Source: a virus
Virus record (IMG/VR): IMGVR_UViG_3300045988_144650
DNA: 64,000 bases
Direction: 5' to 3' (one strand)
Shown: one piece after another, positions 3,601 to 58,798 of the stretch
Layout of the letters: every line of letters begins with the position of its first letter
Position numbering within the stretch: position 1 is the stretch's first letter
The notes under the pieces: generated by a model
The model's database searches: none
What the model saw: only the letters and a program-made list of their open reading frames with translations
Told to the model about the DNA's origin: nothing
Made by a program: the position numbers and the translations under genes

Positions 3601-4554
3601 CTACCTTGTAAACGCCGCTTTCCAACACTCGTAGTCGTCTTCAAGATCACGACGAATACCGTTGGCAAGCTTATTCCTGGTGTAGTTACGGTGGTACTGG
3701 TGGTCTGTTTTACCCATGCGCTCAACAATGAATGCGTCGAAATTCACTGGCTCTCCAAACCTTTCCATCTCATAGGTCTTATAGAAGAGGCCAGACAGAC
3801 GGATTTTACCATACGATGTTTCAATACCTTCGGCCTTAAACTTCTTACCAATGACTGCCCTTATGGTAGTGAGCTTGATCTGAGCGGAACGAATTCCTCT
3901 CAAAAGATGCTCGCCCGGATACCTGTTACGATACCCACCCTGCTTACCATCAGTATAGTTTGGGTTAACATAGCGAAACTCTGTAGCGTTGCAGGCCATC
4001 TTAAAGGCAGGAACTGCTTCACGATAGATCTCATAAGACTTTCCGCCATGTTCAATCGTCATGGTGTCAAAGTCTACTTCATCGACTGTTACCTCAATCG
4101 CTTCTGCTTCTTCAATGCCTGCAAAACCCATCCAGAGATAACATCTGTATAGACAGTCTACTGTTTCGCTTGCTACCGGTTCAAAGATCTTATTGAGTAT
4201 GGCTTCGAGATGGATTGGAGAAGCTATCATCATGCGTTTCATCTTCTCGTCCATCTCAGTTTTCAGCTCATACACATCGCTACAGGTAGGATAACCTTGT
4301 TCTTTGCACCAGCCGACATACGATCTCAAAAAGGCTATGGTTGAGTCCGTCGTTCTTGTACGGGAGCCAAACTTCGCATTAGCAATAGGCTGTAGGATGT
4401 CCACAGTAAGTTCGCAGAGATCCTTTTCCTCTTTCTGCTCATAGGGCTCTATGGTGTTGAACACAGACTTGCCAAAGTCTACTGAACTTCTCATTTCGGT
4501 CAAAAACCGCATCTTTCGCTCTTCGTTATACATGGGAACCTCCTTACGCAGCAC
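3601..4554 (-). CDS. Hypothetical protein, possibly a degenerate tyrosine-recombinase-like fold.
   Basis: 317 aa with HLLRGIR (HxLR-like) and a late Y (NYTRNK). The box-I Arg is not evident, so the resemblance is weak. Confidence 0.35.
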   Translation of the reverse strand: MLRKEVPMYNEERKMRFLTEMRSSVDFGKSVFNTIEPYEQKEEKDLCELTVDILQPIANAKFGSRTRTTDSTIAFLRSYVGWCKEQGYPTCSDVYELKTEMDEKMKRMMIASPIHLEAILNKIFEPVASETVDCLYRCYLWMGFAGIEEAEAIEVTVDEVDFDTMTIEHGGKSYEIYREAVPAFKMACNATEFRYVNPNYTDGKQGGYRNRYPGEHLLRGIRSAQIKLTTIRAVIGKKFKAEGIETSYGKIRLSGLFYKTYEMERFGEPVNFDAFIVERMGKTDHQYHRNYTRNKLANGIRRDLEDDYECWKAAFTR

Positions 4555-4978
4555 AACAGTTCAGCCGGACGGCTGCCTGCCATACCTCCAGCAGATCGCT
4601 CTCGTTCAGAAACGAGATAGCTGCTGTGGCAAGCAAGTTCGCTGCTGCGATTTTCTTCATATACTCGTCGGGAAGTCTTGTCAGAAACTTTCCGATCCTC
4701 GCCTTAGACATTTTTTCGGGGTTCTCACACAAAACCATGCTGTCTCTCCGCAGACCGGTGTCTGCAGCGAGCACGACCACATGGGTCGGCTGGTTTGTTT
4801 TCTTGATAGAGCTGGTGAGTGGAAGTGCAATCACATTAGGGCTGTGTGCATTACCGACATTATTCTGAAACACCACGCCAGGTCTCCATCCGCTTTGCTC
4901 GTTCCCGCTACCCTCAAACTTCATCAGGTAGACATCTCCGATCACCGGAGCCATACTACTCTGCCGATTCTCGCTCAT
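4544..4978 (-). CDS. MazF/PemK-family endoribonuclease toxin.
   Basis: GDVYLMKF...GWRPGVVFQNN...VIALPLTSS...THVVVL...GLRRDSMVLCE matches the MazF/PemK fold signature. Confidence 0.7.
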   Translation of the reverse strand: MSENRQSSMAPVIGDVYLMKFEGSGNEQSGWRPGVVFQNNVGNAHSPNVIALPLTSSIKKTNQPTHVVVLAADTGLRRDSMVLCENPEKMSKARIGKFLTRLPDEYMKKIAAANLLATAAISFLNESDLLEVWQAAVRLNCCAA

Positions 4979-8937: not shown

Positions 8938-10080
8938 TTATCTCCTTTGCAGCTTCTTCACTGAATCTGCGATGACATGAGCTGCCTCGCAAATCTCCTC
9001 GTTCGTTGTAAACACAGAAAATGAAACACGGATTGAACTTCTCGCCTCATCGTCTGACAAACCAATCGCAGTCAACACATGGCTTGGAACTGCAGAATGG
9101 GCAGAACAGGCAGAGCCGGCAGATACAAAAATTCCTTTATTGTTGAGTAGAAGGAGCAAAGTTTCCCCATCCACTCCATCAAAGAAAAGATTGACTGTTT
9201 TTGAACCATCATGGGGGCAACCGTTAATCTGAACCTCACCCAGTTCTTTGGTGAGTTCACTCAAGAAAAGCTTACGCTTGTCTGCATTCTTCTGTTTGCT
9301 TGTAGGATCTTCGAATGCGGCCTCGGCAGCTTCTCCCATGCCGACAATAGACGGAACATTTTCCGTTCCAGACCGAAGCGTCTGCTCCTGACCTCCGCCA
9401 AGAATGATTGGTCGAAGAAGTTCTTTGTGTTTTGCGTATAAAAAACCCACGCCCTTTGGAGCGTGGAACTTATGACCGGAGACTGAAAGAAAATCGATAT
9501 GATCCCTTTCCACATCAATATCCATATTGCCATATGCCTGGACACAATCTGTATGGAAGAAGATGCCATACTTCTTACACTTTGCTCCGATCCTCTGGAT
9601 GTCATAGGAATTTCCCGTTTCATTGTTGACTGCCATCACGGACACAAGACCGGTATTTTTCCTAATCTTCCTGGTGAGTTCGGCAGTATCCAATTCACCG
9701 TCTTTACCCATAGCCAAATACTCGACTTCAAAACCACTATAAAACAGGTATTTCATAGCCTCCAAAACGGAAGGATGCTCTACCGGAGTGGTAATCACAT
9801 GAGTCTTGCCAATGGAAATAAGGTGTTTTGCCAAACCCACGATTGCCAGTGTGTTTGCTTCTGACCCACCAGAAGTGAAGATAATATCTTCTGGGTCAGC
9901 ATTGATTGGCCTTGCACACTGTTCCCTTGCTTTCTGCATTGCTTTTGCCGCATCTGCTCCCATCGTGTGAATACTTCCTGCATTACCATACATTTCTGTG
10001 AAGTACGGAAGCATAGCATTTACCACTCGCTGAGAGACCTGTGTGGTTGCGGCATTATCCAAATAGATCATGGGAACCAC
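8938..10080 (-). CDS. Cysteine desulfurase (NifS/IscS-like class V aminotransferase).
   Basis: N-terminal YLDNAATT, the PLP lysine motif SGHKF and an active-site Cys in SAGSACS. Confidence 0.85.
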   Translation of the reverse strand: MVPMIYLDNAATTQVSQRVVNAMLPYFTEMYGNAGSIHTMGADAAKAMQKAREQCARPINADPEDIIFTSGGSEANTLAIVGLAKHLISIGKTHVITTPVEHPSVLEAMKYLFYSGFEVEYLAMGKDGELDTAELTRKIRKNTGLVSVMAVNNETGNSYDIQRIGAKCKKYGIFFHTDCVQAYGNMDIDVERDHIDFLSVSGHKFHAPKGVGFLYAKHKELLRPIILGGGQEQTLRSGTENVPSIVGMGEAAEAAFEDPTSKQKNADKRKLFLSELTKELGEVQINGCPHDGSKTVNLFFDGVDGETLLLLLNNKGIFVSAGSACSAHSAVPSHVLTAIGLSDDEARSSIRVSFSVFTTNEEICEAAHVIADSVKKLQRR

Positions 10081-13668: not shown

Positions 13669-14529
13669 TCACAGCCACCGCTCAACATAGTCGCGGTCTT
13701 GTGTGAAAATCGGAGGCTCCTTGTCGATAATCCATTTGCGTCTGGAAACCGTGATGGTCTTACCGGGATTTTTCGGGTCAGGCATATTGGTTTCCTCAGC
13801 TTGCCTATAGCAGCAAGAACCTCTCTTGCAATCCACGGGGAAATCGTTCCAGTTGATACCATGTACCTGCCACAGCATCTCCTGAATCATGTTTGTGGTC
13901 TTCTTATGAAGCTGATTAGCGCTGAAATACGCTTGTCCAACAGCCTCAATACTGTTCCTGGTGGCATCCTGCTGTCGCCAAATCAAGCAGTTGCAAACTT
14001 CATCTTTGGGAACTGAGAATGCACGAGAATCAAAAAGAGCACCCTTATTCAGCGCCCTCTTCAAAGTTTCTGCGTATTTGTTCAGTTCCTTTTTGATCTC
14101 AGGATCTTCGCCATACATACCACTCAGTACATCTTCCCGATTAAAATAATCATCAATGTTCTGATAGAGCGCCTTGTTAAAAGCCAGGGTTGCCAGCGAT
14201 GCTGAGATGCTGCACATCTTCTGGAGGTTATATCCAAACCACGCATCGGTTGTGATGGTCGCGTAGTCCGTCAAAACCAAAGTGATTTCGTCAGACTGTG
14301 TGTAGCCAAATACACAACCCTGAATATTGGCGCAGAGACTTTGCATGGTCTGTTGCATGGTTTTCATCAAGATAGAATCAAAAGGCTTTTTCATGCCCTT
14401 TGTAAAGGTGTGAAACGCCTTGCCGTCAATGCGGATCACAACTGGGACTCTGCGTGTCAGATAGCTACGAGAAATATTTTCATAGCTCTCTTTCATACGG
14501 TCACCCAAAGAGTCCTTCTTATTGCTCAT
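13669..14529 (-). CDS. Thg1-like protein (tRNA-His guanylyltransferase / 3'-5' polymerase family).
   Basis: VVIRIDGKAFHTFTKGMKKPFD...YTQSDEITLVL matches the Thg1 catalytic core (RIDGRxFHxF...KPxD...QSDEIS). Confidence 0.7.
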   Translation of the reverse strand: MSNKKDSLGDRMKESYENISRSYLTRRVPVVIRIDGKAFHTFTKGMKKPFDSILMKTMQQTMQSLCANIQGCVFGYTQSDEITLVLTDYATITTDAWFGYNLQKMCSISASLATLAFNKALYQNIDDYFNREDVLSGMYGEDPEIKKELNKYAETLKRALNKGALFDSRAFSVPKDEVCNCLIWRQQDATRNSIEAVGQAYFSANQLHKKTTNMIQEMLWQVHGINWNDFPVDCKRGSCCYRQAEETNMPDPKNPGKTITVSRRKWIIDKEPPIFTQDRDYVERWL

Positions 14530-15871
14530 CGCTGCACCATCCTTTCATAATCAAATGTTTAATGATTGCGGGGCGCTCGTTTTCAAGGTTACCACTGATG
14601 ACAGCATCAAGAACCTCGTTTAGAATTCGCCCAACATCTTTACCCTCTTTTACATCGCAGAGGTTCATAATGTCATACCCGTCAATGACCAGATCCTTCA
14701 GCTTAAAACATTGGTTCTGCTCAATGATTTCGCTTGCCATCATGCCAAGAGCGACACATCTGTCAATGCGAGACTCTTGCGTATCTTTTCTGTGAGCCAG
14801 AATATCTGCCATGCGAATATCAAGTAGCCGCATGAACTGCTTTTCACCGACTTTATTGAGCCATCTACGAACTGTTTTGGGGGTAGGCTCAATAACTGCA
14901 TCGTGATACAGCACCAGTTCAAGAATGTCGTCTCGCGATTTGTTATCAAAACGAAGTCTTGTTAGGACTTTTTCTGCAAGGTCATGGCTGAAAACCCCGT
15001 GACCGTAGAAGTGCCCACCATTGTGATCTTCTGTATAACAGCATGGTTTACCAATGTCGTGAAGCAGAAGTGATACATTTACCACCGGATCTGTGGCGTC
15101 GTAGTTTGCAACCGCATGAGCAATATGATCGTAAATCGTAAACTCATGGAATCTGTTGTTCTGGTCAAACCCAATGCAAGGCTTAAGTTCGGGGATAATC
15201 GTTGCCATCACATCGCTATATTCGAGCAGGATATTAAGAATACCCTTGCCGGCCAGCATCTTGCATAGTTCTGACTGGATGCGCTCTGCAGCAATGTTCA
15301 TCAACCTATCTTTGTTTTGGTGGATGGATCTTGCTGTTTCTTCAGCAATAGAAAAACCATAGACAGATGCAAATCGCATTGCTCTGAGGATACGCAGCGC
15401 ATCCTCTCCAAACCTATCGTCTGGATTTCCAACACAAGAAATCATGCCGCGTTCCAAATCTTCTTTGCCACCAAAAGGATCAATCAGGCCATTGTGGTTG
15501 TATGCCATTGCGTTAATGGTGAAGTCTCTGCGAGCCAGATCTTCGACCACATCCGTTACGAATCTTACGGTATCGGGGTGGCGGTTGTCTGAGTATTCAC
15601 CATCCACTCGGAATGTAGTGACCTCATACTGTCCATCGTCCATTACAATGGTTACAGTGCCGTGCTTCAGCCCTGTTTCGATCACACGCTTGTCACAAAA
15701 ACTGTATAGAATTTGTGACGGAGAAGCAGATGTACACACATCCCAATCCTTAGGCTCGACGCCAAGCAGACTGTCTCTTACACAGCCACCAACCACATAT
15801 GCGTCATATCCTGCCTGCTGTAGAGTATGGATAATAACTTGGGCGCCATGAGGAATATTGATATTACTCAT
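14519..15871 (-). CDS. cca: CCA-adding enzyme (class II tRNA nucleotidyltransferase with HD domain).
   Basis: GGCVRDSLLG...DWD head motif, RDFTINAMA, RILRAMRF and a downstream HD motif LLLHDIGK. Confidence 0.85.
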   Translation of the reverse strand: MSNINIPHGAQVIIHTLQQAGYDAYVVGGCVRDSLLGVEPKDWDVCTSASPSQILYSFCDKRVIETGLKHGTVTIVMDDGQYEVTTFRVDGEYSDNRHPDTVRFVTDVVEDLARRDFTINAMAYNHNGLIDPFGGKEDLERGMISCVGNPDDRFGEDALRILRAMRFASVYGFSIAEETARSIHQNKDRLMNIAAERIQSELCKMLAGKGILNILLEYSDVMATIIPELKPCIGFDQNNRFHEFTIYDHIAHAVANYDATDPVVNVSLLLHDIGKPCCYTEDHNGGHFYGHGVFSHDLAEKVLTRLRFDNKSRDDILELVLYHDAVIEPTPKTVRRWLNKVGEKQFMRLLDIRMADILAHRKDTQESRIDRCVALGMMASEIIEQNQCFKLKDLVIDGYDIMNLCDVKEGKDVGRILNEVLDAVISGNLENERPAIIKHLIMKGWCSDEQ

Positions 15872-16886
15872 TGATCGCCCTCCTGTTCACTTCCACCACG
15901 AACTCTTCAACGCGCTTCATATTAGGTGTTACCGGCAGGTCAGTGTTTTCCTTGGCGTACTTCAAACGCTTCTCGTAGTCGTTCACCAAGTCAAAGAATT
16001 CCTGTCTATATGAACCGTCTTCTCTCTGGAATTTGCCATTACGAATACTCAGTAAAAACTCCCGATCTCCGTAACGGTAGGTGTTGATCTCACCCTTTTC
16101 CAGAATGTCAAGGCACATCATGTACAGACGGATCAGGTGCATGGCGTGCTTGTTGAGATGGTTGTCGTCCTTTTTACGATTTCGATGATTCAGCTTTTCA
16201 TAGTTGCCAATGACATTGGAAAGCGTATTTATCATCACGCTGAAATCTCTTGCGGGGAATTTGTCGATGTGAATGTTGCAAAAGACCTCTCGATCCAAAT
16301 CATCGCGTGGACTTTCATCTGTGAACAGGGTAATGCCGCCACTATCCATCACAGAATAGCGGTCTGCAAAAGCCTTGAAAGAACGCTCCATTGCGCTTCG
16401 AATGTGTTCTTCGGTATCCGCCTGACACATTTTGTCTCTTGCCAGAGCATTCTGCAAACGGCGTAGTTGCTGCGTTGCATACCCGCCAAAAGAATTAACT
16501 GCTTTCTGAGAAAGGAAGAGATCGCGGTTGTCAATCATCATCTGTCCAGCGTCAGAGATGTAAAAATAATGCTCTGGCTTGCAGCCGAGCATCTCAATGG
16601 TGTTAGGGTTGCAGTTAAGCAAAAGACCAATCAGTTTATTAAACCCGTAGATCGTGGTATCAGTCTGCGTGTGTACGACCTGCTCAAAATTCGTGAGGCC
16701 GAGGATATCGCTTTTGCTGTTCATCGCACACCCTCGAATATCAACATCTGAGGTTTCGATGTTCGTGCCGTAGGCGTAACTACCGCCCAGCGTCAGAAAC
16801 ATGATGCGACCTTTGAGATGTGGGTTGGTTCGCAGAAAATCATATTCTTCGCTTGCCATCATCTCTTTGATTTGTTCAATCGTCAT
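15864..16886 (-). CDS. Pol-beta superfamily nucleotidyltransferase, RNA-repair-associated type.
   Basis: GGSYAYGTNIETSDVDIRG is the GS...D.D nucleotidyltransferase signature. The gene is co-operonic with the CCA enzyme and the Thg1-like gene. Confidence 0.55.
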   Translation of the reverse strand: MTIEQIKEMMASEEYDFLRTNPHLKGRIMFLTLGGSYAYGTNIETSDVDIRGCAMNSKSDILGLTNFEQVVHTQTDTTIYGFNKLIGLLLNCNPNTIEMLGCKPEHYFYISDAGQMMIDNRDLFLSQKAVNSFGGYATQQLRRLQNALARDKMCQADTEEHIRSAMERSFKAFADRYSVMDSGGITLFTDESPRDDLDREVFCNIHIDKFPARDFSVMINTLSNVIGNYEKLNHRNRKKDDNHLNKHAMHLIRLYMMCLDILEKGEINTYRYGDREFLLSIRNGKFQREDGSYRQEFFDLVNDYEKRLKYAKENTDLPVTPNMKRVEEFVVEVNRRAINE

Positions 16887-24244: not shown

Positions 24245-25183
24245 TTACTCCTCCTTTGCCTTTAAGAATTGGAACATCTCCGTGATGTTGTTGGTGACGG
24301 GGAAACGCTCTGTGCTACAAGAGTTTCTTGCAAATTGGCCGGAAACTGCATCCACATACATAGAAGCAGAACTCAACTCGCCCTCTCTGCCATCGTCTCC
24401 CATATAGAAAATCTTCCACTCTTCTTCAGACATCAGTCGCTTGACATCAAGCTGAGAAATCGCCAGATTGTCAAAACTTATGGTCTTGAACCAACCGTTT
24501 TTGATAATCTGCGGAAGATATTCATACATATCATGCATTTTGTTGTCGACGATCTGACCAACCTTCATATGGTGGTCAGCGCCGCGTCGGAAATCCTTAT
24601 ATCCAAGGATCAGGATCTTCAGCTCACGGTTGCGTTCCGAAAGCCAAGACACCTGTTCCATACTAACAATGCCGTTGATGATGTGAATAACAGCATTGGG
24701 AAACTTGGAAACTTCATCCGCAAAACGGTAAGTGCTTTCGCGATCTCCGCCGGTATAAGAAATTCCCAAGCCATAAATAAACCCTTGCTCCATCAGTTCG
24801 AGAAGCAAGGGAATGTTTTTCAGAAAATGAACTTCGTTGACCGTCACATTTGCTATCAGCTTGCGCTTCTTCAGCAAATGCAGAAACGGGATAAAATCTG
24901 GGTGCGAGAGCGGGTTGCCGCCGCCAATCGCCAGTTCCGTAAACTCGTGGAGAGAGTCAAGAAACGGCAGGTTGAGGATATCACCGTGCTTGCCATCCGG
25001 CCTGGAATCCTCATGGCACATAGGACAACCCTTATCGCAAGCGTTGGTGATTTTGATATCCATCGACTCAGGGAACTCGGCATCAAAGAAGTCCAGATCG
25101 TTTTCTCGGATCTTGGTGCCGTCGGAGAGTATCGTCACGCTATAGTTTCCATTTTGATATTGACCCAAGATACTCATACACAA
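24245..25183 (-). CDS. Radical SAM enzyme, small, with no SPASM domain.
   Basis: CDKGCPMC is a Cx3Cx2C cluster. GGGNP glycine-rich SAM motif present. Confidence 0.7.
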   Translation of the reverse strand: MCMSILGQYQNGNYSVTILSDGTKIRENDLDFFDAEFPESMDIKITNACDKGCPMCHEDSRPDGKHGDILNLPFLDSLHEFTELAIGGGNPLSHPDFIPFLHLLKKRKLIANVTVNEVHFLKNIPLLLELMEQGFIYGLGISYTGGDRESTYRFADEVSKFPNAVIHIINGIVSMEQVSWLSERNRELKILILGYKDFRRGADHHMKVGQIVDNKMHDMYEYLPQIIKNGWFKTISFDNLAISQLDVKRLMSEEEWKIFYMGDDGREGELSSASMYVDAVSGQFARNSCSTERFPVTNNITEMFQFLKAKEE

Positions 25184-25491: not shown

Positions 25492-26700
25492 CTACCTCTC
25501 TTCTTCGCCGGCTTTGAAATTATAGATCGGCTTAATAACCGAAATAATCTTTGCCGTCGGCTCAATATTGTCGACAATGTCTTCCATATTCTTGTATGCC
25601 ATAGGGCACTCATCAAGAGTGCTTTGACCTACAGATGTCGTATAAATTCCACTCATCTGCTTTTTGAACTCAGAAACTGTAAATGTCTGCTTTGCCGCAC
25701 TTCTGCTCATCAATCGACCTGCTCCATGAGGTGCAGAATAGTTCCAATCTTCATTACCCTTACCAATACAGATTAGACTTCCATCTCTCATGTTGATCGG
25801 GATCAGAAGTTTTTCTTCGTTCTGTGCAGAAACAGCTCCCTTTCGCAGAATCATATTATCCAAATCAATATAGTTATGAATTGTTGTAAATTGTTCAACA
25901 ACATGGAACCCCATGTTCTTTACAATAATATCCATCATAGCTTGCCTATTTAATTCGGCAAACTGCTGTGCAATTTGCATATCGTGCAAATATTGCTCGA
26001 ACAACTCACCCTCTACATAGGCTAATGCTTTAGGGATGGATGACTGCTTAGTCTTCATCTGTTTCAAAACGGTTTGAATTTCCTTTTGGCGACCGTCTTT
26101 TTTTAATCTCTGGACAACCTCATCAATTTCATCTTTACTGTATGAGGTTAATGATTTATAAGCAGCATCCTGATAATAATTAGCTATTTCCAACCCAAGA
26201 TGTCTGCTTCCAGAATGGACGACAATATAAATATTTCCATCATCGTCTTTATTTGCTTCAATAAAATGATTACCACCACCGAGTGTTCCGATGCTGTTAT
26301 AGGCGCGATCGGTATTAACTTTGTCTGCACAAAACAGTTTTGACAAATCGATACGATCAGAAAACTTATGTGGTCTCTTATGAATTTCAAACCCAGATGG
26401 AATACTTGATCGAATTACCTTGTCCAACTTTTGTGGTTCAATATGTGTCTCTTTCAGCCGGATGGTTTCCATTCCGCATCCAATATCAACCCCTACAAGA
26501 TTGGGGCATATCTTGTCCTTGATAGTCATTGTGGTTCCAATTGTACACCCTGCACCAGCATGAATGTCGGGCATCATTCGAACTCTGCTTCCCTCCATAT
26601 AGGGTTGATTCAGCAAATTTATCACCTGAGAGATAGATTCGTTGTCGACCACATCAGTAAATACTTTTGCAATGCCGTATTTTCCGCTCAACTCAAACAT
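25492..26700 (-). CDS. rtcB: RtcB-family RNA ligase (3'-phosphate/5'-OH).
   Basis: DIHAGAGCTIG, GGGNHF and HGAGR motifs. Confidence 0.85.
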   Translation of the reverse strand: MFELSGKYGIAKVFTDVVDNESISQVINLLNQPYMEGSRVRMMPDIHAGAGCTIGTTMTIKDKICPNLVGVDIGCGMETIRLKETHIEPQKLDKVIRSSIPSGFEIHKRPHKFSDRIDLSKLFCADKVNTDRAYNSIGTLGGGNHFIEANKDDDGNIYIVVHSGSRHLGLEIANYYQDAAYKSLTSYSKDEIDEVVQRLKKDGRQKEIQTVLKQMKTKQSSIPKALAYVEGELFEQYLHDMQIAQQFAELNRQAMMDIIVKNMGFHVVEQFTTIHNYIDLDNMILRKGAVSAQNEEKLLIPINMRDGSLICIGKGNEDWNYSAPHGAGRLMSRSAAKQTFTVSEFKKQMSGIYTTSVGQSTLDECPMAYKNMEDIVDNIEPTAKIISVIKPIYNFKAGEEER

Positions 26701-29655: not shown

Positions 29656-30468
29656 TTATTCCCAGTTTGTCGTAACACGACCATCTGGATGAATAATAAT
29701 ATTGGAATACCCATCCTGATAATCATTATGTTGCTGTTGCCACATATCTCCGAGTGTTACCCTGGCGTGCTTGCCAGCATAATCAAAAGTTGCATACACA
29801 AAGAAGTCGCCAATACGAAATGTGTGAAGATCAACTTCGTGATCGTTTTGTAATTCATTCCAAATATCTACCGAGTAGTCTTTTCGTTCAAGGCCACTAA
29901 GAAACCGAAAAGAAAAGGCATCTGCATCCATCTTCATGTAATCTTTAATGAATGCCAATGTTGGGGTTTCAACCACTGTTTGGACTGTACACCCAGGAAA
30001 CTTACTTGGATTTGGATGAATAAACTCGTTACAGGACAGATTGATATGTGCCAAACCATTTAATTCTGTGCTGAAACCAGAAGTATTTATTGAGCAAAAG
30101 ACACCGTTGCTGTAACTCTGATATGTTTCAACGATTTTTGCAATGTGTTTTGGATATAGACCGGGTTCTCCGCCAGTGATAGTAAGCCTTCCATTCGGAT
30201 GTTCTTTTAACACACGCTTTAGCGCCTCAACCTGGAGCGGAAAATTATTGTTGCCGGACATTGGGTGCTGCCTTTCCAAGCAAAACGGACAGCTAAACGG
30301 ACATTCCTGTGTGGTAATCAGTTGGATATTGATTCGATAGTAAAGAGGCCGACCAAGTGATGTTTTGATTAACCTGTCTCTTAGCCTATATTGCAGATCA
30401 TTATTCATTTCATTCCTTATTTCGTCGTAAGAACCAATGAACGGAATGAAGTTCAACTTGCTACTCAT
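29656..30468 (-). CDS. Radical SAM enzyme, second copy, small.
   Basis: CPFSCPFC is a Cx3Cx2C cluster. ITGGEPGLYP SAM-binding motif present. Confidence 0.7.
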   Translation of the reverse strand: MSSKLNFIPFIGSYDEIRNEMNNDLQYRLRDRLIKTSLGRPLYYRINIQLITTQECPFSCPFCLERQHPMSGNNNFPLQVEALKRVLKEHPNGRLTITGGEPGLYPKHIAKIVETYQSYSNGVFCSINTSGFSTELNGLAHINLSCNEFIHPNPSKFPGCTVQTVVETPTLAFIKDYMKMDADAFSFRFLSGLERKDYSVDIWNELQNDHEVDLHTFRIGDFFVYATFDYAGKHARVTLGDMWQQQHNDYQDGYSNIIIHPDGRVTTNWE

Positions 30469-31226: not shown

Positions 31227-32720
31227 TTAGTGCTTGTCAGCAATCGCGCCGCCCAGCATACCGGACAGCACGGCCATCAGATCCAGGCCGGTTGCATCCT
31301 TGAAACCATCCTGAACCTGCTTCATGCCGGTGGTAACGGCGCCGGTCAGAGTGGAAGTACCACCCTCGTAGATGGTCATGTTGTCGATACCCTCCATAGG
31401 CTTAGCAACGGCAGCGGCAATCTCAGGCATGGTCTTGACATACTCCATTGCCACATCCAGAACCATCTGCTGCTTAGCAGCGTCGCCGTATTCCTTCATA
31501 GCTTCTGCCTTCTTCAGAATGCCTGCAGCCTCAGCCTCTGCCTTAGCCTGAATGGCCTCGGCTTCAGCACGACCCTTGGCAGCGATACCGGCAGCTTCGT
31601 TTTCCATTGCCACACGAGCAGCTTCGGAACGAGCCTTTTCAGCAGCAGCTCTCTGCTCTGCCTCAAACAGCTCTGCAGCAGCCTGCTTCTGACGCTCGAA
31701 CAGCTCAGCCTCAGAAGACTTCTGAACCTCATACAGCTTTGCATCAGCTTCCTGCTGTGCAGCGTACTTATCGGCCTCAGCCTTCTTCTTGATCTCTGCA
31801 TCCAAAGAACGCTCACGGATAGCAACCTCGCGCTCCTTCAGTTCGATTTCCTTTTCCAGACGAGCCAGGTTGGCTTCGGCTGTCTTGGTTTCGATGGATG
31901 CACGCTGCTCCTGCTCCTGAATTGCATAGGCAGCATCTGCTTCTGCTCGCTTGGCGTCCTCAATCTTCTTCAGCTCAGCCATCTGAATGGCAAGCTCGTT
32001 CTGACGCTTAGCAATCTCCTGATCGGACTTAACCTGAGCCTCGTTGGCAGCCATAGCAGCCTGAGCCTGAGCAATAGCAATCTCCTTCTCTGCCTGAGCC
32101 TTGGAAATTGCGGCGTCCTTGGAAATCTGAACAGTGTTCTCCAGACCGAGGTTGTCGATCACGCCGTTGCGATCCTTGAAGTTCTGAATGTTAAAGGTAG
32201 TCAGCTCCAGACCCATATCGTTCAGGTTGGGAGTAACATTCTCAATGATACGCTCGGCAAAAATCTTCTTGTCACCCTGGATCAGTTCCTTCAGAGTGGT
32301 CTGAGAAATAATCTCACGAATATTACCCTCCAGAACAGGAGTAATGATTTCGCGAATCTGATTGGGATTATAGCCAAGGAATTTAGAGGCTGCGACCTTC
32401 AGCATATCAGGATCTTTAGCGATGGACACATTGGCTACTGCGTCAACCATAATGTTGATAGCATCCTTGGTGGGGATCTCATCGCGAGAAGTGAAGTCAG
32501 ACTGAATGTTTTCCAGAGACATATAGTCGACACGCTGGATGATAGGAATAACCAGTGCGCCCTGACCGATAATTGTTCTTGCACCACGGGGGCCGGTGAT
32601 GACCATTGCCACATTGGGAGGTGCTTTCTTATACATAACCTTGCCAATGAAGATCAGAAGAATGATTGCGACAAGGATGCCGACACCGGCGGTTGCGTAA
32701 GGCAAAATCATTTCGAGCAT
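31227..32720 (-). CDS. Flotillin-like SPFH-domain protein (FloT/YuaG-like).
   Basis: N-terminal transmembrane anchor, an SPFH region, then a long Ala/Glu/Gln/Lys-rich coiled coil (EA repeats) and a C-terminal flotillin tail. Confidence 0.75.
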   Translation of the reverse strand: MLEMILPYATAGVGILVAIILLIFIGKVMYKKAPPNVAMVITGPRGARTIIGQGALVIPIIQRVDYMSLENIQSDFTSRDEIPTKDAINIMVDAVANVSIAKDPDMLKVAASKFLGYNPNQIREIITPVLEGNIREIISQTTLKELIQGDKKIFAERIIENVTPNLNDMGLELTTFNIQNFKDRNGVIDNLGLENTVQISKDAAISKAQAEKEIAIAQAQAAMAANEAQVKSDQEIAKRQNELAIQMAELKKIEDAKRAEADAAYAIQEQEQRASIETKTAEANLARLEKEIELKEREVAIRERSLDAEIKKKAEADKYAAQQEADAKLYEVQKSSEAELFERQKQAAAELFEAEQRAAAEKARSEAARVAMENEAAGIAAKGRAEAEAIQAKAEAEAAGILKKAEAMKEYGDAAKQQMVLDVAMEYVKTMPEIAAAVAKPMEGIDNMTIYEGGTSTLTGAVTTGMKQVQDGFKDATGLDLMAVLSGMLGGAIADKH

Positions 32721-33889: not shown

Positions 33890-34218
33890 ATCTGTAATCT
33901 ACAAGTACACCCGTCTTCTTGAGGAAGCTCTGGAGGGACTCCTCGTCGAGAGCTGAGGCTTCGTGAAGCGTGAGTTCGGGATTTCGCATCGGGTCGGTGA
34001 GCGAGAAAACCCTTGTAGTTACAGGGGTTTTCGAGTGTTTCCGAGTGAGGAAAATTTATTTATTTCCTGACCCTGCGAGCAGTGTCATCTCTTGCGCCGG
34101 GCGAATTCGCTGGAGGCGCCTGCCGCAGCGGCGTGCCCCTGGTATTTCCCCCCGGCCATTCGTAACTCCGATTTACAATACGGAGCATTAACTGAAACAG
34201 TTAATAATGCATTACAGA
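33890..34218 (-). ncRNA. Family-1 structured element, long copy B (about 329 nt, retron-ncRNA-like architecture).
   Basis: Minus-strand a1 ATCTGTAAT immediately followed by G, then the conserved CATTA-SL1-TGC-SL2(CTCCG-TATTGTAAAT-CGGAG)-TTACGAATGG module, a variable GC-rich ~230-nt body, and a2 ATTACAGAT 27 nt upstream of the next gene start. Confidence 0.45.
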
Positions 34219-34820: not shown

Positions 34821-35157
34821 CTTTGTAATCATTACATATATATCCTGATTCCCTTCAGTGCGATCATCGATGGGATGCCAATCCCAGTTCTGTCGTCATC
34901 TGATGTGATTTGGACTTCTTGCAGTTGGGAAACCACCTAATTCCGAGGTCTTAGTTGGTGTTTTGCACGGAATTATTTATTTAGTCTTGGTTCAACCGCC
35001 GGAGACTGGGTGCCTCTTGAGGTGTTAACGCGTTGACGGCCGGCGGAGCTGCGGGCGTCACCAGTGGTGGGCTATGTGTTTCCTCCCGACCATTCGTTAC
35101 TTTGATTGACAATACAAAGTGCTACTTGCCAAAGACAAACAGCTATGCATTACAAAG
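34821..35157 (-). ncRNA. Family-1 structured element, long copy C (about 337 nt).
   Basis: a1 CTTTGTAAT-G and a2 ATTACAAAG carry compensatory changes relative to copies A and B. SL2 is CTTTG-TATTGTCAAT-CAAAG. The conserved TAACGAATGG block is present. Confidence 0.45.
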
Positions 35158-36075: not shown

Positions 36076-37221
36076 CTACTGGTTGAGATCCTCGCTCATG
36101 CTTTTCATAACATCGGTGTGGAACTTCTCATTGTTGTACTTGATTACGCTATCTACATACTCTTTTTCGACCATGCTGTAATAGTTGACCAAACCACGCA
36201 GAACCTGTACATCGTGCAGATCCCAATGGCGACCATTCTGCCGGTCGAGAATGTAGTTGCAAATCATTGCCCGCAAGCGCTGTTTGTTCTTATAACCAAT
36301 GGTGATCTCATTATCCTTATTGAGCATCACACCGAGGTTCCAATTACTTCCAGCGCGTGAGCCATAGCGCGTCTTTTCGTCTTTGATCTTAAAAGGAGCA
36401 CCAAACTCTGCGAGGGTAGAATTGATAAAGCCGATGATTTCATCCTTATCAAAACCCTTACGGCTTGAAAAGAGAGAGTCATCGGCATATCTGGTATATA
36501 CATAATGATTTCCATTGAAGTCACGCAGGCAATTGTTGATACGATGGTCAATGGGAATCATCATCAGATTTGTGAGCATAGGGGAAATAGGTGTTCCCTG
36601 CGGGAGACCACCGTTCAGGAAACACAGATCCAACGCTTTTTCCAAAGCATCAAATCCGCGCTGAGATTTTACGATCTCGCTAAATGGAAATACTTTGGAA
36701 AGCATAGACATCAGGAACTTCGGAGTTGTGCTGCCAAAGAAGTCAGAGAAGTCGGTCTTGAGGAACCAATGACTCTCATTCTTCTGATGACGCTTTACCG
36801 CGTCGATGGTAGATCTTCCGGGAACATAAGCAAATGCGCTGGTATGATACAGCGCAAACATCTGGGTTTCAAAAATCGTTTTCAGATTTCTGAGCGCATT
36901 CATCAGCGCTGGCTGCGGCGCATTGATCTCACGCAAGCCACCGGACTTCTTAGGGATATAGAACTTATCGTAGAGGTCGCTGCGCTTTGCCTCGTAAAGT
37001 TTAGCGTTCTGCTTGCAAAACTCTTCCAAGGTTACGACCATTGCATCAATATCAAAACGCTCAAGGAACTTGGGGTTCAGAACTTTGGAAAAGTAAGTTC
37101 TTGTGTTGGTCTCATTGGGGTTGACCATGTTGGCGAGATTGACATTCCCCGAAATAATTTCATCAAATGTGATCTGATGGAAAATCGGAGACTGCATCAG
37201 CGTAATGTAAGGCACTTCCAA
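36076..37221 (-). CDS. Reverse transcriptase, retron-type.
   Basis: RT motifs: IPKKSGGLREINAP (1/2), AYVPGRS, FLKTDFSDFFGS (A), GLPQGTPISPMLTNL (B'), YTRYADD (C), and a downstream KT....NLGVML resembling the retron VTG region. Start follows AAAGGAGG. Confidence 0.75.
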   Translation of the reverse strand: MEVPYITLMQSPIFHQITFDEIISGNVNLANMVNPNETNTRTYFSKVLNPKFLERFDIDAMVVTLEEFCKQNAKLYEAKRSDLYDKFYIPKKSGGLREINAPQPALMNALRNLKTIFETQMFALYHTSAFAYVPGRSTIDAVKRHQKNESHWFLKTDFSDFFGSTTPKFLMSMLSKVFPFSEIVKSQRGFDALEKALDLCFLNGGLPQGTPISPMLTNLMMIPIDHRINNCLRDFNGNHYVYTRYADDSLFSSRKGFDKDEIIGFINSTLAEFGAPFKIKDEKTRYGSRAGSNWNLGVMLNKDNEITIGYKNKQRLRAMICNYILDRQNGRHWDLHDVQVLRGLVNYYSMVEKEYVDSVIKYNNEKFHTDVMKSMSEDLNQ

Positions 37222-37242: not shown

Positions 37243-37569
37243 ATCTGTAATCTACATACTCTGTGATGAGATGACCAGATCAGCTCAGGATACTCGTAGA
37301 TCTTCAGATTCCTGGATTCGGACATCTGATGGCTATGAAGTAACGGTGAACTCCTGGTTGTGCAGGTAATGAGTCTTGGATTTCCTGTGGTTCCTTAAAG
37401 TTTTCTTCAGGAGACACTGATGAAACTCTTGACTTTTGCTGTATAACCTGCGATGCTGCGACCGAGTCGCTGCAGCGTTTCTGGGTAGCCGGGTATTTCC
37501 CGTCCACCATTCGTAACTTTGATTTACAATACAAAGCACTTCCTATTCGGGAAGTAATGCATTACAGAT
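37243..37569 (-). ncRNA. Family-1 structured element, long copy A (about 327 nt), directly 5' of the RT gene. Candidate retron msr-msd ncRNA.
   Basis: a1 ATCTGTAAT-G at the 5' end (minus strand). SL1 is CTTCC-CGAATA-GGAAG and SL2 is CTTTG-TATTGTAAAT-CAAAG, followed by TTACGAATGG. a2 ATTACAGAT lies 22 nt upstream of the RT start. Confidence 0.5.
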
Positions 37570-44345: not shown

Positions 44346-44426
44346 ACCAGGCGGGAAACCGCCTGACCGTAGAAAGGAAAGGAAGCCGAAAGCCAAAGCA
44401 TTCAGCAAAAGTCGCCATGTGGCGAT

Positions 44427-44514
44427 GGCGGAGAGGGTGGGATTCGAACCCACGGAGGTTTTACCCTCGCCGGTTTTCAAGACCGGTTCCTTAAACCAGC
44501 TCGAACACCTCTCC
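44427..44514 (-). tRNA. tRNA-Ser (anticodon UGA), type II.
   Basis: Acceptor GGAGAGG, anticodon stem-loop CCGGT-CTTGAAA-ACCGG, long variable arm, T-arm GTGGG-TTCGAAT-CCCAC, 3' GCCA. Confidence 0.7.
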
Positions 44515-44518
44515 TTAT

Positions 44519-44746
44519 TCAATAGATGGCGACCGTTTTGGTGAACAGAAGATACAGACCCATGGGAGCAGTCAGCAGAACTGCGGTTGCATCTTTATCT
44601 TCAACCGTGGTTCCCTGAGAAGCTATGTAAATGAGCAGGATGCTCATGGCGATCAGCGCCAAACCATAAAGCTTCTGGATAAACAGCTTCTTGCGACGGA
44701 TCTGATTGCGGGTTCTCTTACTAACAGCTTGCGTGCTCATTTTCAA
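44519..44746 (-). CDS. Small membrane protein.
   Basis: 75 aa with a basic N-terminus and two hydrophobic helices. Confidence 0.4.
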   Translation of the reverse strand: MKMSTQAVSKRTRNQIRRKKLFIQKLYGLALIAMSILLIYIASQGTTVEDKDATAVLLTAPMGLYLLFTKTVAIY

Positions 44747-45237
44747 ACCTCCTCAGAATACGGATACTGAATAACTTTGTCCCCATCAACGATGGGGTGA
44801 CGAATGGAAAACCCATATGCGTCGTAGAGATATTCCTCAAACGCAGATGCGATTTCCTCAATGCAGTCATCATCGAAGCACTCGTCCGGTTCGCACTCCA
44901 ACAGAACGGAGAGGTAATCAATGGTTGCGCTGTGGATTTCTCCAAGTCGGTCAAGGTCTTCTGCATCCAAAACCTCATCGCTATCGGTTTCGCAGATGTA
45001 GAGATTGAGAAGCTGCGAGTAAACCTTTTCGATTTCAGCTTCAGAACTTGCTTTGGCTTCGTATTCAACGACTCCGTCCACTTCAACCGTGAAGTAAGGC
45101 AAACCCTCTTCCTCGGTGATGTAAACCTCGGCGCCAACCTCTGCTTCATCAGCGACCAAGCGATATTCGCTCTGCAGGGCAAACCGATTTTCGTTGTAGA
45201 ACTTTCGGATCTCGCCAACAGATACAATCGCTGCCAT
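44743..45237 (-). CDS. Hypothetical acidic protein.
   Basis: Likely start MAAIVSVGEI at 45237 after AAAGGAGG. The track extension to 45291 would run through the family-2 element. Confidence 0.45.
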   Translation of the reverse strand: MAAIVSVGEIRKFYNENRFALQSEYRLVADEAEVGAEVYITEEEGLPYFTVEVDGVVEYEAKASSEAEIEKVYSQLLNLYICETDSDEVLDAEDLDRLGEIHSATIDYLSVLLECEPDECFDDDCIEEIASAFEEYLYDAYGFSIRHPIVDGDKVIQYPYSEEV

Positions 45238-45275
45238 CTGAACACCTCCTTTTCCTGTTAAATTCAAAACTTTCC

Positions 45276-45321
45276 ACTCTGCATTTCTCATGCGGGCTTG
45301 TGACCGCCATTGGCTGCATTA
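45276..45321. repeat. Family-2 element, copy 4 (short form).
   Basis: CTCTGCATTTCTCATGCGG-GCTTGTGA-CCGC-CATTGGCTGCATTAG. The hairpin-1 stem changed ACGG/CCGT to GCGG/CCGC (compensatory). TTGAAT follows 9 nt downstream on the minus strand. Confidence 0.4.
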
Positions 45322-45549
45322 GAAAACCCCTCTTGAGAACAGGTAAGCAGCCGATTCACAAGAGGGGAATTTCCCCCGCGTTCAGGTGTTAATGCGGGAT
45401 TGTTTAATCAATCATAAACTTTAATCATTTGGATAACACCTGCCCAAAGCAAGAGGTCAGCGCTAACCCCTCACTCTCCGCATTTCGGGAATCTTTTCGC
45501 ATACGGTACGCCGCGTCAAGGCTCGTCGCGGAAAACCCTGCCAGGGATG

Positions 45550-45621
45550 TGACATGAGCAAGACTCGAACTTGCGACACGCCGGTCATATCCGGTTGCTC
45601 TACCGACTGAGCTATCATGCC
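45550..45621 (-). tRNA. tRNA-like element or pseudo-tRNA, with no encoded CCA and a noncanonical anticodon arm.
   Basis: Canonical D-arm TAGCTCAGTCGGTAGAGC and T-arm GCAAG-TTCGAGT-CTTGC with acceptor GGCATGA/TCATGTC. The anticodon region CCGG-ATATGA-CCGG gives only a 4-bp stem and a 6-nt loop. Confidence 0.4.
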
Positions 45622-45838
45622 ATAGCAGGAGAAGCGTGGACTTTTGCCAAAGCCTCCAGAGCCTCAAAACTCTCTACGACGGTTTTGTGAGCGCAGGCAA
45701 TCGCACAACGATCACAGTCAATGTGCATACCGCGATTACAGCACACATTGCAGGAGTAACGGAAACTTCCTTGTGCTTTTCGCTTACTGGTCGCGCCGTA
45801 CTGAATTTCGACACCGATTTCTTCAAATCTGGTCATCG
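45615..45838 (-). CDS. Small Cys-rich protein.
   Basis: Likely start MTRFEE... after AAAGGAG. The body reads CNVCCNRGMHIDCDRCAIACAH. Confidence 0.4.
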
Positions 45839-46124
45839 TAACAACTCCTTTCGTATTGAATTTTGAAACCTGGGAGACGCGCTCCACCGACCGCCATTGT
45901 GGCGGTTATCGTCTTAATTTTCAAAGACTCATCAGGGTGGCTCTACCCACGGCAACAAAAGGAGCAAGGCAAATTGTTTTCTGTTTGAGAACTTGTCTGC
46001 CTCTGCACACTTGCGAGGAGATCACAAGTCGGTTTAATTCATAAGACCTTGCAGCTTTCGTTTTCCGTTTTTTGGCATAAAAAAGACCCTCCAGAGAAAC
46101 CGGAAGGTCTTGATAGGGAAAAGC

Positions 46125-46510: not shown

Positions 46511-46544
46511 AATCGGATCGTTTTTCAATTCAAGACCCTGCCCA

Positions 46545-46599
46545 CTCTGCGTTTACACGGACTTGTGACCGTTTGCAAAACCTTTGCAAGTCGCATTAG
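46545..46599. repeat. Family-2 two-hairpin element, copy 2.
   Basis: CTCTGCGTTTACACGG-ACTTGTGA-CCGT-TTGCAAA-ACC-TTTGCAA-GTCGCATTAG. Confidence 0.45.
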
Positions 46600-46633
46600 G
46601 CGCGGAGAGCCGAAACCCTCCGCGTTTGGGGAT

Positions 46634-47473: not shown

Positions 47474-48041
47474 AGTTCTTACTCCTTTATGGTTTATTTA
47501 TGGGCAAGCCCATAATGAAGCGCAGTAACCCTTGTGGAGCTACTGCGCTCGATATAGACTTGCGTAGCAAGGGCAAGCCCCTGCGCGCATAAACTTTTTG
47601 ATTGACAAATCATGCTCGCTCAAGTAATTCCCCTGGTCGCCTTACATCTGCGCTATACACCTCCTTGAAGCTTTCACGCATAACACCCAACTCTACCACG
47701 ATAGAGGCATCCTTGATACCTAAACCGCTTAACGGCTTTATCAAATGCTGCTCAGAAACCAGGCTGCATAAGTGAGCCAACACTTATTCACTTGCGCTTA
47801 TTCATATCGCTCAAAGGTCATAGTGACTATAACCTATTGCCGAGAACTCAATACTACCCGCGTTCAGTATCCGCGCACTCTGAACCTAACTTTCAGAATT
47901 TTTGGCTGACCTTCTCTTATGGCGGTTGAAGCCGCGCTCGTGGTAAGAGTACCCTTCTTTTGGTGGCAAAAGTACCCCTTGTGTATGCCCATCAAGGTGG
48001 CGCGTTGGATCGCTCAACCAAGTAAAAACCTGGTCGAACCA

Positions 48042-48099
48042 CTCTGCATTTATACGGGCTTGTGACCGTTCGCCGGAAACCTCCGGCAAGCTGCATTAG
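48042..48099. repeat. Family-2 two-hairpin element, copy 3.
   Basis: CTCTGCATTTATACGG-GCTTGTGA-CCGT-TCGCCGGA-AACC-TCCGGC-AAGCTGCATTAG. Confidence 0.45.
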
Positions 48100-48132
48100 T
48101 TCTTTGGGTCTTTCCGTGTGCGCTTTTGCGCT

Positions 48133-57757: not shown

Positions 57758-58798
57758 GTGGCTTGTTTGCCGAGAAGCACACAGATGAATGATCTGACAA
57801 GCCCCGAGCTTGTCGCGCAGGTCAACCCCGAGAATCTGCGGCTAAAAAAGGATTTTCTGGATTATCTAAAATCCGTTCAGAGAAGCCCTGGTACAATTCG
57901 CGGTTACGAGAATGACCTTGATATCTTCTTCGTGTATTGCATGAAGAATCTTGGCAACAAGAACTTTGCAAATGTAAGTAAGCGAGATCTTGTTTCCTTC
58001 CAAAATTGGCTTATCAACGACAATGGAAATTCGCCGTCGCGAGTGCGGCGAATCAAGTCTGCAATCTCTTCTCTATCCAATTTTATCGAAGCAATTCTGG
58101 ATGACGAGGAAGAGTTTAAGAACTTCCGCTCTATTGTTCGTAAAATTGAGTCCCCCGTAAATCAGCCGGTTCGTGATAAGACGATCCTGTCAGAAGATCA
58201 GCTCAACAGTTTGCTGAAAATGCTGACGGATAGTGGCAAGCACGAAAAGGCTTGTATGCTGGCCTTGGCTATGCATTCAGGCCGAAGAAAGTCTGAGCTT
58301 GTGCGCTTTAGGGTCGATGACTTTAAGGACGAGAACTTGGTTTGCGGCGGTGCGCTGTATAAGACAAGCGAAACAATTAAGACCAAGGGCTTTGGACTTG
58401 GCAAATATATTTATTGCTACACACTGGCAAAAGATTTCAAACCCTACTTTGACCGCTGGATGGAACAGCGTGAGAAAGATGGTATTGTCAGTGAATGGCT
58501 GTTCCCGCTCAAGGATGATCCGACACAGCAGATGAAGCCCGAAACACTAAACAGTTGGGCAATATCTTTCGGAAAGCTGTTGGGCGTAGATTTCTATTGG
58601 CACTGTCTCAGACATTACTTTACAACCGACCTTGCCCGCTCCGGTTTGCCGGACGGTGTAATTCAGGAAATCATTGGTTGGACTTCAAGCGATATGGTTC
58701 GCCTGTATAAAGACCTGACTACCGAAGAGCAGTTGGATCAGTATTTTGATGAGACCGGTATCAAGGTTGTTCAGCCTACAAAGCTGAGCGATTTGTGA
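57758..58798 (+). CDS. Tyrosine integrase/recombinase.
   Basis: MHSGRRKSELVRFRVDDF (box I Arg), HCLRHYF (HxLR), catalytic Tyr in DMVRLY, and an N-terminal SAM-like core-binding domain. Confidence 0.8.
   Translation: MACLPRSTQMNDLTSPELVAQVNPENLRLKKDFLDYLKSVQRSPGTIRGYENDLDIFFVYCMKNLGNKNFANVSKRDLVSFQNWLINDNGNSPSRVRRIKSAISSLSNFIEAILDDEEEFKNFRSIVRKIESPVNQPVRDKTILSEDQLNSLLKMLTDSGKHEKACMLALAMHSGRRKSELVRFRVDDFKDENLVCGGALYKTSETIKTKGFGLGKYIYCYTLAKDFKPYFDRWMEQREKDGIVSEWLFPLKDDPTQQMKPETLNSWAISFGKLLGVDFYWHCLRHYFTTDLARSGLPDGVIQEIIGWTSSDMVRLYKDLTTEEQLDQYFDETGIKVVQPTKLSDL

Follow-up and report, generated by a model that had tools for sequence, protein, structure and literature searches.

A conserved tRNA-like element with a variable anticodon arm in a phage operon with twister-like ribozyme matches

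Cloverleaf RNAs comparable to the element described here are known from mammals and from a herpesvirus. In mammals, mascRNA/MALAT1 and NEAT1 contain a cloverleaf within a longer transcript; its arms are conserved, its anticodon loop is poorly conserved, and it does not decode. RNase P and RNase Z excise mascRNA and thereby form the ends of the neighboring RNA; mascRNA then gains CCA and is not aminoacylated. We analyzed a 64,000-nt stretch of viral DNA (IMG/VR virus record IMGVR_UViG_3300045988_144650; hereafter the window, at its full length) and found that a 72-nt tRNA-like element in it resembles these RNAs, very probably also in not decoding. Unlike mascRNA, which belongs to a eukaryotic nuclear long noncoding RNA, the element lies in a phage operon, overlaps a stop codon, and has a predicted twister ribozyme cut nearby. 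The tRNA-like units of murine gammaherpesvirus 68 (vtRNA-miRNA units, or TMER) are likewise viral tRNA-like RNAs linked to a downstream structured RNA; they are not aminoacylated, and 3' cleavage by RNase Z releases the downstream small RNA. However, TMER belong to an animal virus, supply RNA polymerase III promoters, and release microRNA hairpins, whereas the phage element has a bacterial host, is followed by a structured RNA of ~120 nt, and is not expected to act as a promoter. Phage tRNA genes are usually read as helpers of codon usage or as replacements for tRNAs destroyed by defense systems; this locus would represent a third state, in which the tRNA body stays under selection after decoding has been abandoned. 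Our search of the literature, the coverage of which is incomplete, returned no description of such an element for bacteriophages.

Four further systems share single properties with the element. The tRNAs of mitochondrial punctuation and of tufB-type operons are intercistronic cut points for RNase P and RNase Z, but those tRNAs decode. tRNA-Other of Bacillus cereus is also a non-canonical tRNA-like RNA of a Firmicute that stands outside normal translation; it is chromosomal, lacks canonical D- and T-loop residues, and is aminoacylated by lysyl-tRNA synthetase (LysRS), whereas the phage element has retained a canonical elbow, with no identity set conserved. The tRNA-like domain of transfer-messenger RNA (tmRNA) and the bacterial Y RNA YrlA, often linked to RtcB operons, both mimic tRNA without an anticodon. 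The phage element differs from tmRNA in lacking G3.U70 and a tag open reading frame (ORF), and from YrlA, which has the reversed topology with a closed acceptor and an open anticodon end; the window contains no Rfam hit to YrlA. Finally, the altered-loop tRNAs of phage T5 (against PARIS and Retron-Eco7) are phage tRNAs shaped by tRNA-targeting immunity, but they keep 7-nt loops and decode, which the present element could not do.

Conservation of the tRNA body and variation of the anticodon arm

The element is encoded on the minus strand, with its 5' end at 45621 and its discriminator base, A, at 45550. It is considered here together with its anticodon arm and with an ordinary tRNA gene of the same operon that serves as an internal control:

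45550..45621, minus strand: tRNA-like element, 72 nt (ARAGORN, Rfam, cloverleaf as minimum free energy fold, covariation over 11 variants)
45580..45595, minus strand: aberrant anticodon arm ACCGG-AUAUGA-CCGGC (sequence and relatives)
44426..44514, minus strand: tRNA-Ser(UGA) with encoded CCA, the internal control (a twister-like match follows at 44348-44288)

The element consists of a 7-bp acceptor stem, canonical D and T arms, and a 5-nt variable loop, with G1-C72, U at position -1, and no encoded CCA. Read 5' to 3' its sequence is GGCAUGA-UA-GCUC-AGUCGGUA-GAGC-A-ACCGG-AUAUGA-CCGGC-GUGUC-GCAAG-UUCGAGU-CUUGC-UCAUGUC-A, followed by CAU, and its minimum free energy fold is the cloverleaf. In a comparison of the whole window with all 4227 Rfam families, the element belongs to the tRNA family RF00005 with a score of 50.6 bits (E = 6.7e-8) against a gathering score of 29. 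ARAGORN labels 45549-45621(-) 'tRNA-???' and gives it an 'anticodon' of 2 bases, which corresponds to a loop of 6 nt; annotation pipelines would tag such an element 'tRNA-???' or 'pseudo' and then discard it. The anticodon stem CCGG/CCGG has 4 bp and is extended by an A27.C43 mismatch (45595/45580); the loop, AUAUGA, occupies 45585-45590. A contig related at 98% has G27 and thereby a clean 5-bp stem with the identical 6-nt loop. Because the same ATATGA loop occurs in independent assemblies of different studies, on four sequence backgrounds, we reject a sequencing or assembly artifact. A first-pass annotation, made from the letters of this stretch, had described the canonical acceptor, D, and T arms, the 4-bp stem with its 6-nt loop, and the absence of a CCA that other tRNAs here encode. 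These features stand, but the description overlooked the minus strand, the overlap with a stop codon, and the twister-like matches and conserved RNA downstream.

We recovered the orthologous locus, with a gene order common to the window, from ~25 independent metagenome contigs belonging to a group of gut phages: L002-L025, reached through homologues of the neighboring 164-aa protein (22 in a large protein collection), with L018 being a JGI contig, and L026, from a metagenome-assembled genome (MAG). Together they hold 11 distinct sequence variants. A tRNA-shaped element stands between a Cys-rich ORF of 73-75 aa and the 164-aa gene in every contig but L020, and these orthologues score 40.3-56.8 bits with RF00005. 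The JGI metagenome scan yielded one near-identical contig, and the scan of a genome collection yielded one phage contig (L026) plus three further matches that we presume, from their taxa, to be chance. IMG/VR contains a single, more distant relative (L001/L030), and searching IMG/VR for exact patterns of the anticodon arm and of the RNA block downstream gave no match. GenBank phages include no relative of the locus, whether by DNA or by the 279-aa protein of the operon, and GenBank similarity of the element is of the generic tRNA kind with inconsistent isotypes (Lys, Ile, Gln, Asn, Phe, Arg). The Cys-rich protein also has a remoter homologue in L031-33, which lies in a different context without tRNA or twister and is uninformative for this locus.

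Across the variants the body of the element behaves as a selected RNA structure. The acceptor, D, and T stems are fully (100%) paired in 11 of 11 variants, and 11 of the 21 modeled pairs show compensatory changes on both sides. The acceptor occurs as GGCAUGA/UCAUGUC, GGCGUGA/UCACGCC, GGCAUAG/CUAUGCC, and GGUGUGA/UCACGCC, and the T stem as GCAAG/CUUGC, GCCGG/CCGGU, and GGGGG/CCCUC. The covariation score is 0.469 compared with 0.237 in column shuffles, a value that none of 500 shuffles reached, and sliding the 3' partners by 1-3 columns lowers pairing from 95.7% to 29-42%. The residues of the elbow and of tertiary contacts (U8, A14, G18, G19, A21, C48, and the T-loop UUCRANU) show no variation or almost none. 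Mean pairwise identities place the body near a genuine tRNA and the distal anticodon arm at the other extreme:

Genuine neighboring tRNA-Ser(UGA): 86%
Body of the tRNA-like element: 79%
Fourfold-degenerate sites of the 279-aa gene: 63.5%
Fourfold-degenerate sites of the 164-aa gene: 42.8%
Distal anticodon arm of the tRNA-like element: 27%

The anticodon arms of the relatives are 13-17 nt long (55 nt in L026), and none has the canonical 5-bp stem with a 7-nt loop carrying U33 and R37. Loops range from 5 to 11 nt and stems from 3 to 5 bp, including a type with 4 bp and 5 nt, so that loop length is not kept:

Four sequence backgrounds: GCCGG-AUAUGA-CCGG(C/U), 6-nt loop
L010: CCUGU-CGAUAA-ACAGG, a different 6-nt loop
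L019: GCC-ACAUGAA-GGC, 3-bp stem and 7-nt loop
L025: GCU(U)-AUUAG-(A)GGC
L021: GCU-CAUAGGAU-GGC
L005 and L012: 17-nt arms with mismatches
L026: 55-nt arm with an extra 7-bp hairpin, loop GUAUAAU (element at L026 2997-3108)

Even with its 55-nt arm, the L026 element is recognized as tRNA by Rfam (40.3 bits). The control tRNA-Ser has the 7-nt loop CUUGAAA or CCUGAAA and the UGA anticodon in every relative. Given that the arm is unconstrained while the loop of tRNA-Ser is fixed, the element cannot be a decoding tRNA: a conserved 5-bp stem, 7-nt loop, U33, and purine 37 are not found. Nor did we find a fixed non-standard loop, such as the 8-nt loop of a frameshift suppressor or the 6-nt loop of a doublet-reading tRNA, or the broken stems, lost T- and D-loop invariants, and absent compensation of a pseudogene. 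G3.U70 and a tag reading frame are absent (10 variants have C-G at 3:70 and one has U.G), and ARAGORN reports no tmRNA. What we do observe, a conserved body with an unconserved anticodon loop inside a longer transcript, is the pattern of mascRNA and the vtRNAs. On these comparisons we consider it very probable that the locus is a selected, non-decoding tRNA mimic, and the general suggestion of a tRNA mimic in the first-pass annotation is borne out by selection on the body across the 11 variants.

The 3' end points the same way as the arm. All 24 ordinary tRNAs of the window and the relatives encode CCA (including all six of the other tRNAs in the window), and none of the 11 tRNA-like variants does; the difference is therefore conserved rather than an accident of one copy. 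The discriminator is A in 8 of the 11 variants and U or G in the others. CCA may be added to the element after transcription.

Neighboring genes and structured RNAs

The element is in line with the flanking genes of its operon. The features around it are as follows:

46111-46083: terminator closing the preceding unit
45896..45924, minus strand: sigma-70-like promoter candidate TTGAAA-17-CACAAT, upstream of the Cys-rich ORF (consensus scan)
45615..45836, minus strand: Cys-rich ORF, 73 aa (ORF list, start codon, homologues)
45431..45549, minus strand: structured noncoding RNA of ~120 nt, here called Block 1 (alignment, RNAalifold, covariance model)
45327..45367, minus strand: GC-rich terminator-like hairpin CCCCUCUUG...CAAGAGGGG, then UUUUCU (sequence, alignment)
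45271..45325, minus strand: twister-P1-like ribozyme without one optional stem (RF03160, 48.3 bits, E = 1e-7)
44743..45237, minus strand: gene for a 164-aa acidic protein (22 homologues), the last part of an accessory module

On the upstream side, the Cys-rich ORF ends with AUG-GCA-UGA (-UAG in relatives); these codons supply positions 1-7 of the tRNA-like element, i.e., the 5' strand of its acceptor, and U8-A9-G10 form a second in-frame stop. All variants keep this overlap with the stop codon. Since the overlap leaves no room for a promoter of its own, the element would be co-transcribed with the Cys-rich ORF. The promoter candidate upstream of that ORF is weak: in the consensus scan, promoter-like sites are no more numerous than expected from shuffled sequence.

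On the downstream side, a spacer of 312 nt is not neutral in the alignment of relatives. Its first part, Block 1, lies directly 3' of the element and includes an invariant GCGUACCGUAUGCG at 45511-45498, a small hairpin CCGCG/CGCGG at 45531-45511 with a compensated pair, and a long hairpin at 45478-45446 with the apex UUAGCGCUGA, in which RNAalifold shows double changes in 9 pairs. A covariance model of Block 1 finds a single copy in the window (133.5 bits); the window holds no second copy and no complementary target, and Block 1 matches no Rfam family. It is followed by an AT-rich variable stretch and then by two hairpins, the second of which ends in a U-run. This U-run, UUUUCU, is also the 5' strand of the P1 stem of the twister-like match, and relatives keep the hairpin with differing sequences. 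In the twister-like match the RF03160 core UAAUGCAGC...CGGUCACAAGCCCG...AAAUGCAGAGUGG is present and is nearly invariant in relatives; the predicted cut, which we take to fall between U45321 and A45320, precedes the ribosome-binding site of the 164-aa gene, itself located after 45325-45271.

This twister-like match is one of four that occupy intergenic gaps, one per gap, on one strand of one operon and that are conserved in relatives. The other three score 55.8-65.3 bits, with E values down to 1e-12; the gathering score of RF03160 is 67.2 bits, and thus all four lie below it (E values are for the whole window). Each relative has three or four such matches, and over the window and relatives the scores are 48-66 bits with E = 1e-7 to 1e-13. 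The remaining matches in the window and those of two relatives are:

46539..46602, minus strand: twister-P1-like, between the 279-aa and 115-aa genes (58.1 bits)
48036..48102, minus strand: twister-P1-like, upstream of the 279-aa gene (65.3 bits)
44348-44288, minus strand: twister-P1-like, after tRNA-Ser (within 55.8-65.3 bits)
L030: twister-like at 309-372, 2023-2089, and 4752-4812
L026: twister-like at 551-616, 2015-2077, 3313-3367, and 4253-4313

Genuine tRNAs in this locus are also followed by a twister-like match, at 65-80 nt or less.

The module composed of the tRNA-like element, the spacer, the twister-like match, and the 164-aa gene is absent as a whole from the IMG/VR relative L001, in which the Cys-rich ORF still ends GGCAUAG and is directly followed by a small membrane-protein gene. 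L001 has no ordinary tRNA at the site, and it does not settle whether the module was inserted or deleted. L020 is the sole case of true decay among the relatives, judging from its sequence: at 2439-2860 the 5' half of the element has given way to a 109-aa ORF, the 3' half has decayed (T loop UUCGAGC to CCCAAAU), and most of Block 1 is gone, while the twister-like match and the 164-aa gene are kept. L020 thus indicates that the element and Block 1 were lost together. The 164-aa protein evolves much more rapidly than the proteins encoded beside it: over one set of genomes its mean amino-acid identity is 64%, and that of the 279-aa protein is 89%. The proteins neighboring the element have no informative Pfam, PHROG, or PADLOC match, and the AlphaFold2 model of the 164-aa protein has a predicted local distance difference test score (pLDDT) of 68 and no fold match in PDB (best E = 0.04). 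Among its homologues (P0001-P0022), P0021 is fused to the next gene and frameshifted variants also occur (P0022).

A possible role in transcript processing and its alternatives

RNase P, RNase Z, and the CCA-adding enzyme recognize the acceptor, the T arm, and the elbow and ignore the anticodon. The conservation pattern of the element fits a role based on such recognition, and the overlap with the stop codon, the surrounding twister-like matches, and the conserved RNA downstream point to processing. By analogy with the systems described above we posit, tentatively and with a probability of roughly 0.4, that the element is a handle for host tRNA end-processing enzymes within an mRNA. RNase P would cut 5' of G45621. 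In Bacillus subtilis CCA blocks RNase Z, and RNase Z of Firmicutes cuts only precursors without CCA; because CCA is absent here, an endonucleolytic RNase Z cut would be expected after A45550. Such a cut, in place of exonucleolytic trimming, would spare the conserved RNA downstream. The twister-like ribozyme ~225 nt downstream would cut at the position given above, leaving a cyclic-phosphate 3' end on the noncoding RNA and a 5'-OH end on the mRNA of the 164-aa protein. The combined effect of the three cuts would be to detach the upstream cistron and to free Block 1 and the hairpins as a noncoding RNA with defined ends.

Several observations weigh against this proposal. An RNase P cut at G1 would strip the last two codons and the stop from the upstream ORF and so produce a non-stop mRNA. 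This would be costly except where cleavage is regulated or the protein is no longer needed once cleavage has occurred. With twisters that would already cut the transcript, a handle of tRNA shape seems in part superfluous, and L001 does without the whole module. Cleavage by RNase P and RNase Z is predicted throughout. Every loop, moreover, holds an 'AU-purine' motif (N-NAU-R). This motif may be a residual constraint, for which a pure handle has no need, or may equally reflect shared ancestry, the loops being short.

The phage encodes a set of enzymes that bear on both this proposal and its rivals, among them the MazF-like RNase, RtcB ligase, and CCA-adding enzyme of the first-pass annotation:

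4544-4978, minus strand: MazF-like gene
13669-14529, minus strand: Thg1-like 3'-5' polymerase, adjoining the CCA-adding enzyme
14519-15871, minus strand: CCA-adding enzyme
15864-16886, minus strand: RlaP-family nucleotidyltransferase, adjoining the CCA-adding enzyme
25492-26700, minus strand: RtcB

RtcB ligates 2',3'-cyclic phosphate and 5'-OH ends, the kind that self-cleaving ribozymes of the twister type make. It is conceivable that the predicted products are substrates of the phage RtcB and undergo ligation or circularization, and the twister-like operon together with RtcB offers a concrete system in which to study the shaping of transcripts by ribozymes and tRNA enzymes and the role of a bacterial-type RtcB. 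A more speculative extension, which we regard as quite unlikely, is that the element and Block 1 constitute a new phage noncoding RNA unit with ends set by RNase P, RNase Z, and twister, or that the freed tRNA shape is a decoy that works alongside the RtcB, Thg1-like, RlaP, and CCA-adding set against host immunity.

A decoy or sponge role can also be considered apart from processing. The element could bind a tRNA-targeting factor of host defense (a nuclease or a toxin that modifies 3' ends) through the acceptor, T arm, or elbow, or could titrate or regulate one of the phage's own tRNA enzymes. Lacking a usable anticodon, it would leave translation undisturbed; the entire L-shape is kept rather than a minihelix alone, the phage has the RtcB, CCA-adding, Thg1-like, RlaP-family, and MazF-like genes, and the fast-evolving arm and acidic protein resemble an accessory or counter-defense module that is present or absent as a unit. 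However, the repair genes lie 20-30 kb away, and PADLOC is uninformative for the neighbors. A single copy embedded in an mRNA is a poor fit to a stoichiometric sponge, the arm varies in length, none of the loops resembles the anticodon loop of any particular host tRNA, and no conserved loop motif matches a nuclease site; a decoy therefore seems to us unlikely, if worth keeping in mind. The intact 7-bp acceptor, the discriminator A of most variants (8 of 11), and a canonical T arm suited to both the CCA-adding enzyme, which the phage encodes, and EF-Tu could instead belong to a non-ribosomal or regulatory pseudo-tRNA, to which CCA is added and which is charged by an anticodon-independent synthetase and donates its amino acid elsewhere, or which acts like tRNA-Other of B. 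cereus. We find this improbable given that the discriminator varies among A, U, and G and CCA is consistently unencoded, and that the element has neither G3.U70 nor a long variable arm; the identity sets of the anticodon-independent Ala and Ser systems are thus absent.

An unusual decoding function, as a frameshift-promoting or doublet-reading tRNA or as a derivative of tRNA-Ile(NAU) from which U33 was deleted, would account for the N-A-U followed by purines in every loop (UAU, CAU, GAU, AAU). The L010 loop, C-GAU-AA, resembles CUGAUAA of tRNA-Ile minus U33, and tRNA-Ile is among the BLAST neighbors. Such a function would fix the loop geometry, as in the neighboring tRNA-Ser, but here loops of 5-11 nt sit on stems of 3-5 bp, one arm has 55 nt, and U33 is absent in most variants, which makes unusual decoding very improbable. 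Equally hard to sustain is a functionless, decaying pseudogene, the decayed tRNA of the first-pass annotation. The abnormal loop, the missing CCA, the A27.C43 mismatch of the window copy, and the destruction in L020 would suit it. With decay, the T loop and acceptor should nevertheless be damaged, as in L020, while in the relatives the same element recurs with fully paired, compensated stems (11 compensated pairs against adjacent neutral sites that are 43-64% identical) and always with an abnormal arm, and no relative holds an ordinary tRNA at this position, which was the condition set for decay in that annotation. The notion of a precursor that needs repair, also from that annotation, is unsupported, since neither the length nor the sequence of the loop is conserved and no repaired product is defined. 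Finally, tRNA genes are frequent integration sites for phages of Firmicutes and integrase-like genes are present, so that the locus might be a DNA-level site, for example an attP that reproduces a segment of a host tRNA gene for use by the phage integrase. We give this scarcely any credence: the acceptor and T-stem strands co-vary so as to keep RNA pairing, for which a DNA site would have no use, the locus is at least 12 kb from either recombinase, and the loop region, where crossover usually occurs, is the least conserved part. One scan of a genome collection showed no prophage junctions (attL/attR) that split the tRNA-like element.

Phage identity, host, and further observations

Terminase, portal, and integrase genes confirm that the window is from a phage. 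The relatives of its portal protein all come from phages of Firmicutes, bacteria for which the processing of CCA-less precursors by RNase Z is established, with the closest relative from human feces, and for this reason we doubt the label of L026 (contig CAZUZK010000045.1, from a MAG labeled uncultured Bacteroides), the 'Bacteroides' bin of which is probably an error. The integrase-like genes are:

57758-58798: integrase-like gene
3601-4554: integrase-like gene

We also considered whether the reverse transcriptase encoded at 36076-37221 could belong to a diversity-generating retroelement acting on the anticodon arm, and obtained no support for this, as no pair of template and variable repeats was found but only a 50-nt sequence repeated three times. 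The three repeats (34138-34187, 35072-35121, and 37489-37538) are 72-82% identical, each contains a small hairpin, and they flank the reverse-transcriptase gene.

One of the ordinary tRNAs of the window is unusual in size. It is a 107-nt tRNA at 29638-29532 on the minus strand with the anticodon GUA (Tyr-like), an encoded CCA, and an insert of ~37 nt in the variable region, which is unusually long; Rfam detects it (38.1 bits) and ARAGORN misses it. Between tRNA genes, at 31227-32720 on the minus strand, lies a gene for a 497-aa flotillin/SPFH-domain protein. Elsewhere the window encodes a class-V aminotransferase (8938-10080) and has two weak radical-SAM matches, at 24245-25183 (below the Pfam cut-off) and 29656-30468.

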